A stretch of DNA of 64,000 nucleotides from an uncultured cyanobacterium. GTDB taxonomy: Bacteria > Cyanobacteriota > Cyanobacteriia > Cyanobacteriales > Nostocaceae. Below, piece after piece: positions 39,159-40,098 of the stretch. The stretch lies in contig OY970166.1 of assembly GCA_963706595.1 (NCBI GenBank), positions 2,752,001 to 2,816,000 of the forward strand. Reading direction: 5' to 3'. The translations under genes and the position numbers were made by a program. Within the stretch, counting starts at the first letter, position 1. Every line of letters starts with the position of its first letter. Below the pieces are notes generated by a model. The model made no database searches, had not been told where the DNA came from, and saw nothing but the letters and a program-made list of their open reading frames with translations.

Positions 39159-39641
39159 TCAAAACTCTGCCTTTCCATCTTCAACAGGCGAACAGACACA
39201 CTTTTCTTCATCTAAAGCAGCTGGCAAAATTAATTCCCAAGCCTCACGATATTGTGTAGAACGAGGTTGGCGCTGTCGTTTGTTCGTCTCAACTAGGTGG
39301 ATTTCACTACCATAATCTATAAATACATTTACTGGAAAAATATAGAATAAGTCGAGTTTTTCTATATATACCAGTGCAAAATCAAAATCAGATTGCTGAT
39401 ATGCTGCTCGAATCATGATCCGCCGATTCGTTTTAGTGCGGCGGTTATCTACAACATAATTGCCAGAAGATTCATCAAACCAAGCGGACTTGACTTGAAT
39501 TTTAACTAGATTTCCTTCTACATCAAAGACTAAATCGTAGGGAAGCCGATCTCCCACAGGTTTCAAAACTCCCCAACCACGCTTGAGGGCATGAAAAATA
39601 GCAGCCTGTTCTGCTATATCTCCTTTGAGCTTTGTGTCCAT
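39159..39641 (-). CDS. PD-(D/E)XK homing endonuclease of the I-Ssp6803I family, free-standing
   Basis: TKLKGDIAEQAAI, YDLVFD, KIQVKS, VDNRRTKTNRR and YREAW closely resemble I-Ssp6803I as I recall it; next to tRNA-fMet; ATG 39641. Confidence 0.88.
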   Translation of the reverse strand: MDTKLKGDIAEQAAIFHALKRGWGVLKPVGDRLPYDLVFDVEGNLVKIQVKSAWFDESSGNYVVDNRRTKTNRRIMIRAAYQQSDFDFALVYIEKLDLFYIFPVNVFIDYGSEIHLVETNKRQRQPRSTQYREAWELILPAALDEEKCVCSPVEDGKAEF

Positions 39642-39718
39642 TTGCTCATAGCGGATATCAGCATAAAACAAAACCCTGAAAACTCTAAGGTTAACAGGGT
39701 CTTGCTTTGTCTTTCATT

Positions 39719-40050
39719 TGGTGGCGGGAAGTGGATTTGAACCACTGACCTTCGGGTTATGCCTACCAACTACAGTTTTCACTGCCCGGATATTCCGGTT
39801 TGTGGTCTGGACTGTCCCTTCGCCCTCGTCTATCATTTCTGATTCCGTTAGGGTGCCTGCCTTCCAGTCTCTACACCTTCTCCATTTCTGGAGCTTGGTT
39901 CGGGATTACCGCGCTAGTGGCTTCCCCGAGTTTGACAGGTAATCATACGCAAGTTTCTTCGCGTACCGCCCACTGCAAGACTAACTAATAAGCGCTTAGT
40001 TGAATCTTACGAATTGAGCCCGACGAGCTACCAGACTGCTCTATCCCGCG
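39719..40050 (-). tRNA. trnfM: tRNA-fMet(CAT), intron-split: exon 1 40050-40017, exon 2 39761-39719
   Basis: Spliced 77 nt CGCGGGATAGAGCAGTCTGGTAGCTCGTCGGGCT^CATAACCCGAAGGTCAGTGGTTCAAATCCACTTCCCGCCACCA; C1 unpaired with position 72, GGG/CCC anticodon stem, encoded CCA. Confidence 0.95.
39762..40016 (-). ncRNA. Group I self-splicing intron (255 nt, ORF-less)
   Basis: Follows exon U and ends in G. P1 GCU^CA pairs with UGGGC (U.G at the splice site). P AAACUCGGGGAA, Q AAUCCCGAACC, R GUAGAGACUGGA, S AAGGGACAGUCC; P7 GACUG/CAGUC. Confidence 0.93.
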
Positions 40051-40068
40051 TCGCCTCTTGACTTCTAT

Positions 40069-40098
40069 AGTATAACCACAAGGTTTCAAGTTTGTCAA
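40069..40098 (-). promoter_or_regulatory. Sigma70-type promoter of tRNA-fMet
   Basis: TTGACA-N18-TATACT ending 18 nt upstream of the tRNA 5' end. Confidence 0.75.

Follow-up and report, generated by a model that had tools for sequence, protein, structure and literature searches.

The window that we analysed is a stretch of 64,000 nucleotides of contig OY970166.1 (assembly GCA_963706595.1), from an uncultured cyanobacterium of the family Nostocaceae, and all of the features described here lie on its minus strand. At window positions 40050-39719 it carries a split tRNA-fMet gene, whose 5' exon (40017..40050) ends in ...GGGCT, the last base being U33 of the anticodon loop, and whose 3' exon (39719..39761) reads CATAACCCGAAGG...CCACCA, with the CCA encoded. 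The exons were delimited using ARAGORN with introns allowed, which called tRNA-Met(cat) i(35,255) at exactly these coordinates; under default settings the program called zero tRNAs in the window. The sole match of the 3' exon in this 94%-complete, single-contig genome is its own locus, and the gene is the genome's only initiator tRNA. A promoter-like site (TTGACA, 18 nt, TATACT; 40069..40098), a pattern match only, agrees with the consensus at 11/12 positions and is separated by 18 nt from the 5' end of the tRNA. The locus is flanked upstream by an asparaginase II-like gene (PF06089; 40099..41052), which is syntenic in 61/61 genomes of the family, and downstream by a DUF697/GTPase-like gene (37675..39117), which is syntenic in most of them.

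Between U33 and C34 lies a group I intron of 255 nt with no ORF inside (39762..40016), which starts with CAATTCG and ends with G. It matches the full Rfam model RF00028 (Intron_gpI, positions 1-253) at 48.1 bits (E 4.1e-11), and since the curated cut-off is 50, it is missed at the Rfam gathering threshold. In an RNAalifold consensus of 32 ORF-less homologues, the U.G pair of P1 at the 5' splice site (columns 12/82) and the terminal G of the intron are present in 32/32, a GACUG/CAGUC helix fits P7, and compensatory changes are seen in 32/70 predicted pairs; the conserved helices are P1, P2, P4-P6, P7, P8 and P9. Because the genome has no other initiator tRNA gene the intron must be removed, and we infer that it splices itself from the pre-tRNA.

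The second component of the locus is an intact gene (39159..39641) for a 160-amino-acid, free-standing PD-(D/E)XK homing endonuclease of the I-Ssp6803I family, present as a single copy in this genome. Its ATG is 77 nt past the tRNA CCA on the same strand, its last codon and TGA stop (39161-39159) come from flank sequence, and the DUF697/GTPase-like gene starts 41 nt past its stop codon. The protein matches PF11645 (PDDEXK_5) over profile positions 1-137 of 138 (E 4.5e-55, 185.9 bits, the cut-off being 26.1) and residues 3-143 of PDB 2OST (E 5.4e-68), with an identity to 2OST, counted by hand, of about 72%. Residues E11, D36, Q49 and K51, which we take to be the catalytic residues of the I-Ssp6803I family, are all present and each is at least 97% conserved across 81 sequences; the position of E11 is Q in the 2OST chain. 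On the basis of the 2OST match the nuclease is predicted to have the I-Ssp6803I target specificity. As the gene sits outside the intron, starting 77 nt beyond the tRNA 3' end, the enzyme is a free-standing relative and not an intron-encoded "I-" enzyme. An earlier note on this DNA, which had described an anticodon loop split by a 255-nt group I intron with P1, P7 and a terminal G, followed 77 nt after the CCA by an intact 160-residue PD-(D/E)XK gene, was exact in its coordinates and lengths; the consensus fold agrees with it, and the alignment to I-Ssp6803I that it had called for bears out the family assignment.

Relative to empty alleles the nuclease gene is part of a cassette of about 499 nt (39164..39662), inserted between ...GTTTTAT and TTTGATCTATTCT..., with a junction that is ambiguous by 1 nt. 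Genomes G341 (locus L083), of the same genus as the window, and G339 (locus L103) join GTTTTAT directly to TTTGATCTATTCT, without the cassette. In G341 the site is clean and empty, with neither intron nor cassette and a flank identity of 93-94%, and between the same-genus genomes the intron and the cassette occur together or are missing together.

Between the tRNA and the cassette, locus alignments reveal an intrinsic-terminator-like hairpin with a T-run 3' of tRNA-fMet (39665..39703), which is kept in alleles with and without the cassette and whose stem changes are compensatory between loci; it has a loop longer than 8 nt and is not called by a consensus scan. A pattern scan of the 21-nt leader of the nuclease gene found no promoter-like site, and the gene, behind the hairpin, would probably depend on the tRNA promoter, with read-through giving low-level expression. 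The position of the hairpin between the tRNA and the nuclease gene speaks against an expressed homing unit.

Public RNA was also considered. The tRNA-intron region and portions of the nuclease gene (the latter in 3 runs of 3 studies, X1, X2 and X7) are represented in metatranscriptome contigs, which were set aside as evidence of expression, DNA or relatives being possible sources. A contig that joins the exons, skipping 255 nt, was likewise not taken as evidence of splicing, as it has only 28 nt on one side and may be another organism's.

The 3' end of the nuclease gene bears on how it came to lie outside the intron. From codon 130 to the end (39165..39254) it is homologous to intron positions about 11-96, with P3 and the 5' strand of P4 persisting as a relic in the final ~30 nt (alignment CCTGT...GG.AAGC). 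The intron profile matches a second site at the 3' end of the external genes of relatives at 12 loci (E 2e-8 to 1e-3); the window's own tail falls below the profile reporting limit and its homology rests on these relatives and on a three-way alignment. When a profile of 47 ORF-less introns is aligned to ORF-bearing ones, the match runs from ORF codon 130 as far as the 3' splice site. In the same three-way alignment the closing ~23 codons of the intron-borne nuclease gene have a homologous counterpart in an intron stretch (39943..39999, intron positions about 18-74); it reads S-A-Y-stop-L-V-L-Q-W-A-V-R-E-E-T-C-V-stop, supplies P1 with its 3' strand and also forms the P2 hairpin. In Synechocystis the ORF is listed as inserted in P1, with a P1/P2 overlap of 61 nt (Table 1 of the review of Edgell et al., 2011; PMC3073962).

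The P2-P4 relic in the 3' tail of the cassette indicates that the gene left the intron and was not heading into it, and the evidence from these alignments says that the external gene came out of the intron and was not on its way in. The ancestor of the cassette would have been a nuclease gene once housed by the intron. On its way out the gene would have carried off some intron sequence, about 80 nt spanning P2, P2.1, P3 and the 5' strand of P4, which today would encode the C-terminal tail, and the intron would have held on to the gene's last ~23 codons within P1/P2. The earlier note had left it undecided whether the arrangement preceded or followed the entry of an ORF into the intron; the relic supports the second possibility and tells against the first. 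It is very improbable that a free-standing nuclease beside an ORF-less intron is the ancestral state, caught while entering the intron as proposed for phage introns: the layout does match the phage model of collaborative homing, described as a step to mobile introns (PMC3984707), but the external gene terminates in sequence homologous to the 5' strands of P3 and P4 in the intron core, for which there is no use outside an intron. Within the ORF-less intron, codons for a conserved portion of the protein survive as a degenerate copy interrupted by an in-frame stop. Since a distant archaeal-virus homologue aligns up to residue 138, this portion is native to the protein and did not originate as captured intron sequence. 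A likeness between GCT...GCT motifs upstream of the external ATG, noticed by eye, is unsupported by the profile, and the idea that remnants of the 5' exon or the intron leader precede this ATG was rejected, since the profile of ORF-bearing loci aligns just 2-15 nt upstream (47 external loci).

We compared the locus with its counterparts in two directions, using a set of related loci (the best 80 of 162 relatives) and a census of the family that took one genome from each of 61 genera. The nuclease gene is outside the intron at 46/80 related loci, so that the external layout is not rare, and inside it at 32-33 of 80, a count that includes L078 (checked manually) and L067 (on an incomplete contig); at 1/80 the nearby tRNA is missing. 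In the census the intron is present in 16/61 genomes, of which 7 have a full-length nuclease gene, 7 a broken one and 2 the intron alone. The remaining 45/61 are intronless, 38 with no trace of the nuclease and 7 with a remnant of it, and all 7/7 remnants are broken. In a sample of 301 genomes of the order, intron-like DNA is found in 53 and a nuclease-like match in 24, with about 30 genomes having the intron and no nuclease match at all, and an intact nuclease gene without the intron was not found among the 301.

The pattern that would speak against a two-part unit, in which the intron shields the tRNA gene from the nuclease, is an intact nuclease gene beside an intronless tRNA-fMet, and it is absent from all 45 intronless family loci (0/45), just as no uninterrupted tRNA-fMet adjoins a nuclease gene among the 80 related loci (0/80). 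The two-part unit suggested by the earlier note is supported by these results, and the survey of co-occurrence between intron and downstream ORF that it had envisaged, made here in the order sample and the census, places the intact gene only with the intron. With up to 3 mismatches allowed, this genome contains no copy of the 23-bp intronless target, and 9/10 other genomes with an intact external gene contain none with up to 2 mismatches allowed; G319, which has an intact gene, carries a target-like site with 2 mismatches on another contig.

We consider it quite probable that the locus is a split, two-part homing element residing in the only initiator-tRNA gene of the genome, in which cleavage, splicing and transfer would occur as follows. 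The group I intron would self-splice from the pre-tRNA, and by its position between U33 and C34 would destroy the 23-bp anticodon stem-loop site cut by I-Ssp6803I-type enzymes. Where an occupied allele meets an intronless one, the enzyme should cut the latter; repair from the occupied allele would copy the intron and, given a homologous downstream flank, extend to the cassette, which lies about 120 nt beyond it. Such a process would be collaborative or trans homing, and the layout is the one expected of it, with a free-standing nuclease gene adjoining an ORF-less intron that interrupts the presumed target. The unit may then follow the usual cycle of nuclease decay and, later, intron loss.

The identity of intron plus nuclease to those of relatives stays close to that of the flanks (95% versus 94-96% for locus L004, 89% versus 88-90% for L005, and 84% versus 81-88% for L009), so that the divergence of the unit tracks that of the flanking genes, as expected from vertical descent and loss, and no clear case of a recent horizontal homing event was seen in these comparisons. 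The grouping of a "Leptolyngbyaceae" locus (L015) with one from Anabaena (L020) was examined as a candidate transfer and put down to labelling or binning, as the two are 96.6% identical over 4.8 kb. A search for vectors returned no close homologue in 50,697 phage records, where the 24 distant matches are all under 41% identity, and zero matches among 72,556 plasmids. The best reading of these comparisons is that the unit is probably old in filamentous cyanobacteria, mostly inherited with its locus and decaying repeatedly.

Against its closest relatives the nuclease gene has a dN of 0.013 and a dS of 0.16-0.20, a ratio of about 0.07 (0.065-0.08 against L003 and L004). The median dN/dS over 693 pairs of 44 uninterrupted external genes is 0.071, versus 0.090 for genes inside introns, in a set that leans to survivors, comprising only uninterrupted genes drawn from the 80 best matches. 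Such strong purifying selection, maintained where synonymous divergence is above 1 and with the unit inherited vertically with its flanks, could be taken to mean that the nuclease has been domesticated, serving a host function (cutting incoming intronless tRNA-fMet DNA, or aiding the folding of the intron) and not its own spread, and the external layout is indeed syntenic even in Chroococcidiopsis and Microseira loci. We find this unlikely, however, because 9/16 intron-bearing genera, their nuclease broken or missing, still have the intron and therefore a functional initiator tRNA, which makes the gene dispensable and not a needed maturase; the gene is also absent from 38/61 genera, and neither the phage nor the plasmid records hold a close homologue that would point to a defence context.

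Decay is frequent enough (7 broken and 2 absent among 16 intron loci, and 7 remnants beside intronless genes) to raise the converse explanation, that the element is fixed and immobile and that its nuclease is a relic not yet broken, an open frame without remaining activity or consequence. The terminator that precedes the gene and the horizontal transfer signal that was not seen on comparing unit and flank divergence are in keeping with this, but the low dN/dS ratio is not, nor are the four conserved active-site positions and the full domain, all of which are intact. Alleles with and without the unit, furthermore, coexist within one genus, which means that targets exist. A relic therefore seems quite unlikely, and a split homing element remains our preferred reading of the locus.

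In Synechocystis PCC 6803, I-Ssp6803I is encoded inside the tRNA-fMet intron and cuts the intronless anticodon region. The system described here shares with it the host gene and the anticodon-loop insertion site, a homologous intron (the ORF-less-intron profile matches the Synechocystis-type locus L065 with E 5e-53), and a nuclease that matches 2OST and has the same conserved active-site positions. The exon sequence that forms the target, 23 bp and pseudo-palindromic for I-Ssp6803I (PMC3384342), is identical. The present system differs in that the gene lies in the ~499-nt cassette behind the tRNA terminator and not in the intron, which is 255 nt here as against about 650 nt in Synechocystis, and in that the protein has an extra tail of ~11 residues from the relic intron, with a stop codon supplied by the flank.

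Collaborative homing has been described for F-CphI and the ORF-less psbA intron of cyanophage S-PM2, and for T4 mobE and a defunct I-TevIII intron (PMC6083498, PMC3984707, PMC2790892), with the intron protecting the host gene and the nuclease able to mobilise both (PMC6083498, PMC3984707). Like these, the present locus has a free-standing nuclease gene whose presumed target, in the adjoining gene, is interrupted by a group I intron lacking an ORF. Unlike them, it is chromosomal and bacterial, involves a tRNA gene and not a phage protein gene, is known from sequence alone, and has a nuclease with a homologue that elsewhere occupies this very intron; the course of evolution would be out of the intron here, as against towards it in the phage cases. 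ORF-less group I introns in tRNA-fMet are also on record from other cyanobacteria (Biniszkiewicz et al., 1994 and Paquin et al., 1997, as cited in PMC8450103). With these it shares a sporadic, self-splicing type of intron in the anticodon loop of the initiator tRNA, but here the partner nuclease is present and intact beside the tRNA gene.

We found no published description of the external-gene layout in the literature searched on the I-Ssp6803I family, cyanobacterial tRNA-fMet introns and collaborative homing. More broadly, and tentatively, a homing endonuclease gene may be able to leave its intron and persist for long as a linked, free-standing partner, in which case the split state could be recurrent in bacterial chromosomes, with at least two origins (in cyanobacteria and in Cytophagales, with different cassette ends). 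If this is true, the split state runs opposite to the textbook scheme of introns being invaded by free-standing nucleases. The split may then be favoured because an essential initiator tRNA, present as a single copy, would be rid of a translated intron of 650 nt and the drive would be retained. Collaborative homing, known from two phage systems, has been interpreted as a step towards mobile introns (PMC3984707); here the process would be chromosomal and tRNA-borne, and the sequence appears to record the opposite direction, a nuclease gene exiting its intron.

The census also offers a natural series of stages of the homing cycle at one syntenic locus, from empty, through intron with intact nuclease, intron with broken nuclease and intron alone, to intronless with a nuclease relic, and with it a clean comparative test of the protection of a host gene by an intron. 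With occupied and empty alleles available in one genus, homing could be tested directly by experiment. In practical terms, this initiator tRNA escapes default tRNA finders, and its intron escapes Rfam at the gathering threshold.

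The initiator tRNA gene of the window genome (G000) lies on the minus strand at 40050-39719, intron included, downstream of a near-consensus promoter-like site found by pattern matching (TTGACA, 18 nt, TATACT; 40098-40069, minus strand). Read directly from the sequence, it consists of a 5' exon ending ...GGGCT at 40017, a 255-nt insert (40016-39762) that starts with CAATTCG and has G as its last base, and a 3' exon running from CATAACCCGAAGG... to CCACCA. Joined end to end, the exons make a tRNA(CAU) of initiator type: its anticodon stem holds three G-C pairs, and positions 1 and 72 are mismatched. 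ARAGORN at its default settings called no tRNA in the window, and with introns allowed it reported tRNA-Met(cat), i(35,255), at identical coordinates. In that mode G000 has just two more CAU tRNAs, one for elongator Met and one Ile2-like, and the tRNA-fMet 3'-exon pattern has a single occurrence in the whole genome; this is therefore the sole initiator tRNA gene of the cell, and the insert must be excised from the RNA. The same listing gives a 'tRNA-Ser(aga)' with a 251-nt intron outside the window (G000:C1:1384557-1384895) and lacks tRNA-Leu(UAA).

By sequence match and predicted fold, the insert appears to be a group I intron. It matches the whole of the RF00028 model (positions 1-253; E 4e-11) at 48.1 bits, slightly under the curated cut-off of 50, and an Rfam scan of the window at the gathering threshold returned no match. 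Together with the exon reading and the ARAGORN call, this match bears out the earlier note's description of an anticodon loop split by a group I intron. When 32 homologous ORF-less introns and their exon ends are folded to a consensus, the final exon U pairs with G in P1 and the intron ends in G in 32/32, and the anticodon-stem pairing of the exons is recovered. The hairpins are rich in compensatory changes, a GACUG/CAGUC helix fits P7, and 32 of the 70 predicted pairs show pair-preserving double changes.

Behind the tRNA, also on the minus strand, a hairpin with a T-run (39703-39665) and a 21-nt leader precede a 160-aa ORF (39641-39159), present in one copy in G000. Its product matches PF11645 (PDDEXK_5) over profile positions 1-137 of 138 (E 4.5e-55) and, in the alignment to I-Ssp6803I that the earlier note had proposed, residues 3-143 of the solved structure PDB 2OST (E 5e-68). 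E11, D36, Q49 and K51, which we take to be the active site of I-Ssp6803I-type enzymes, are at least 97% conserved in 81 relatives, and all four occur in the window protein. A consensus pattern scan found no promoter-like site between the terminator hairpin and the nuclease ATG, and transcription may proceed by read-through from the tRNA promoter. Metatranscriptome contigs from relatives (3 runs, 3 studies) span the tRNA-intron region and portions of the gene, and are uninformative on transcript, strand and splicing; such libraries may also contain DNA.

I-Ssp6803I and its intron form a classic system. Our full-text literature search found no description of I-Ssp6803I homologues outside the tRNA-fMet intron, with key primary papers beyond its reach, so that one may be in print. 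The window locus shares its free-standing nuclease adjoining an ORF-less intron with collaborative or trans homing, as described for two phage systems (PMC3984707, PMC6083498).

Scanning genomes at one per species yielded 162 relatives, of which the best 80 were kept and their loci classified by exon motifs and tblastn. The gene lies outside the intron in 46 of these best 80 of 162, with both exons upstream and about 240-310 nt apart, as in the window, and inside an intron of about 650 nt in 32-33 (L078 was placed by manual check and L067 is interrupted by a contig end), with about 20 nt from the 5' splice site to the ATG and about 180 nt from codon 149 to the 3' exon; at locus L079, the gene is preceded by no more of a tRNA than its final 17 nt. 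Within the best 80 of 162, gene-outside loci are almost all cyanobacterial (Nostocaceae, Scytonema, Calothrix, Chroococcidiopsis, Microseira, Floridaenema, Phormidium, Halomicronema), and gene-inside loci come from Synechocystis, Snowella and many other phyla. On these comparative data the gene-outside layout is real and well supported, and is of clear interest for specialists in mobile introns. Intron-borne I-Ssp6803I-type genes in tRNA-fMet, at 65-80% protein identity, occur in MAGs of many labelled phyla (L043-L082), including Nitrospirota, Chloroflexota (Anaerolineae, Caldilineaceae, Ktedonobacteria), Acidobacteriota, Bacteroidota, Planctomycetota, Chlamydiae, Omnitrophota, Actinomycetota, Auribacterota and several Proteobacteria, and this distribution far outside cyanobacteria implies wide horizontal spread. 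No close homologue was found in the phage or plasmid collections searched.

The earlier note saw in intron and separate nuclease gene a two-part mobile unit, a reading that frequent intact nuclease genes beside intronless tRNA-fMet genes would contradict; no uninterrupted tRNA-fMet adjoins the nuclease gene in the best 80 of 162 relatives. Co-occurrence, which it proposed to survey, was examined in a census of 61 genomes sampled from the family, one per genus. Every one of them gave a match to a 2.2-kb query spanning the locus, and every locus was retrieved and classified; most show the syntenic order asparaginase-II-like gene, tRNA-fMet, DUF697 gene. The tRNA-fMet is intronless with no trace of the nuclease in 38/61 genomes and with a nuclease remnant, every one broken, in 7/61; it carries the intron with a full-length, uninterrupted nuclease gene in 7/61 (the window genome among them), with a broken one in 7/61 and with none in 2/61. 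Full-length genes thus accompany 7/16 intron-bearing versus 0/45 intronless loci, counted over related, non-independent genomes, and so the intact gene occurs in this census only together with the intron.

Among the intronless remnants, that of G071 has a scrambled catalytic core, that of G320 is truncated with PYD changed to SSD, and those of G348, G329, G332, G328 and G318 are short relics; G132, from an order sample, provides an eighth such locus. In two intron-bearing genera (G311, locus L094; G340, locus L102) the nuclease has a stop at Tyr35 of the P-Y-D motif, through common ancestry or recurrent active-site knock-out, and the gene of G335, counted as broken, has its sole stop at codon 140 and may have kept its function. 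Across the 301 genomes of the order sample, intron-like DNA was present in 53, a nuclease-like match in 24 and the intron alone in about 30, and where a nuclease match has no intron with it, the match is a fragment or a distant paralogue.

The uninterrupted 23-bp target cut by I-Ssp6803I-type enzymes is absent from G000 at up to 3 mismatches, and at up to 2 mismatches from 9/10 further genomes whose external gene is intact. In G319, which has an intact external gene, one 2-mismatch site lies on another contig (G319:C7:5407-5429), its two changes compensating each other by turning a G-C pair of the anticodon stem into A-T. The site may mark another CAU tRNA gene, perhaps a resistant one, or be a contaminant; the G319 genome measures 12.3 Mb with 4% contamination. 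Several related genomes (e.g. G071, G094, G319) hold 1.2-1.6 kb of N bases, which could hide parts of the locus if positioned there.

An empty site is provided by G341, from the same genus as the window genome, in which the flanks are 93-94% identical and the tRNA-fMet is uninterrupted. After the terminator, G341 and G339 read GTTTTAT followed directly by TTTGATCTATTCT, and at this junction the window carries an additional cassette of about 499 nt (39662-39164). The cassette starts 21 nt ahead of the nuclease ATG, and the nuclease frame extends beyond it, the last codon and TGA stop being flank sequence. The same left junction, GTTTTAT then GCTG..., is common to Nostoc, Floridaenema, Microseira and Chroococcidiopsis loci, which argues for a single origin of the main clade of external genes. 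At L095 (G335), L096 (G317), L008, L012, L016, L039 and L042, 0.6-2 kb of other DNA separates the tRNA terminator from the nuclease gene, and further insertions thus seem to concentrate at this junction.

Median dN/dS is 0.071 for 44 uninterrupted external genes (codons 3-134; 693 pairs with usable dS) and 0.090 for 32 intron-borne genes, in a sample skewed to survivors; against L003 and L004 the window nuclease shows dN 0.013 and dS 0.16-0.20. The identity of intron and nuclease to the window follows that of the flanks, locus synteny reaches Chroococcidiopsis and Microseira, and the odd tree neighbours L015 and L020 are no more than near-identical loci. Together these observations record a long vertical descent in which decay and loss recurred, and presence or absence within the genus is the sole sign of recent gain or loss.

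Of the two placements offered by the earlier note, an intermediate before or after the ORF entered the intron, the sequence favours the second and speaks against the first. The 47 ORF-less introns were combined into a profile whose alignment to ORF-bearing introns begins at ORF codon 130 (locus position 3388) and reaches the 3' splice site; the ORF-less intron is thus the ORF-bearing one less codons 1 to about 129. In gene-outside loci the profile finds a second site, where its positions of about 11-96 match the external gene's 3' end. E values there are 2e-8 to 1e-3 in 12 loci, and about ten more give weaker matches; in the window's external gene and its nearest kin the match falls under the reporting limit. 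A three-way alignment has the external genes running beyond the usual stop into ...CCTGTC...TTCGGGGAAGC, the 5' strands of intron P3 and P4, and then at once into flank. Because core intron sequence would otherwise be pointless outside an intron, the cassette was probably copied from an intron-borne nuclease gene. The window intron contains, at 39999-39943, a decayed version of the codons for ...AWELILQWA..ET.V-stop, with an in-frame stop, in a stretch that also serves as the P1 3' strand and P2; this agrees with the Synechocystis intron, whose ORF a review table places in P1 with a 61-nt overlap with P1/P2 (PMC3073962). Since the alignment with a distant archaeal-virus homologue reaches residue 138, the C-terminal codons are native to the protein and no capture from the intron. 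Ahead of the external ATG, neither the 5' exon nor the intron leader has left a solid relic. One possible exit route is a tandem duplication and then reciprocal deletions.

The protein tree (139 columns, LG+G4, SH-aLRT), a quick build with many unresolved forks, unites 41 external genes in one weakly supported group (81) and joins the Cytophagales external genes L075 and L079 (98) with gene-inside Bacteroidota (90). It demands a minimum of 5 changes of layout, 2 of them forced by strongly supported branches, and the gene-outside layout probably has more than one origin. The two Cytophagales loci with the nuclease outside the intron (L079:2900-3423; L075:2590-3432) are apparently of independent origin. 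The tRNA exon of L075 is of host type, the filler of its ORF-less intron differs, and its tail lacks the intron relic. At L079, the tRNA remnant and its terminator are all that precede the nuclease gene, and so it seems that the block of tRNA end, terminator and nuclease was relocated or that the tRNA was destroyed.
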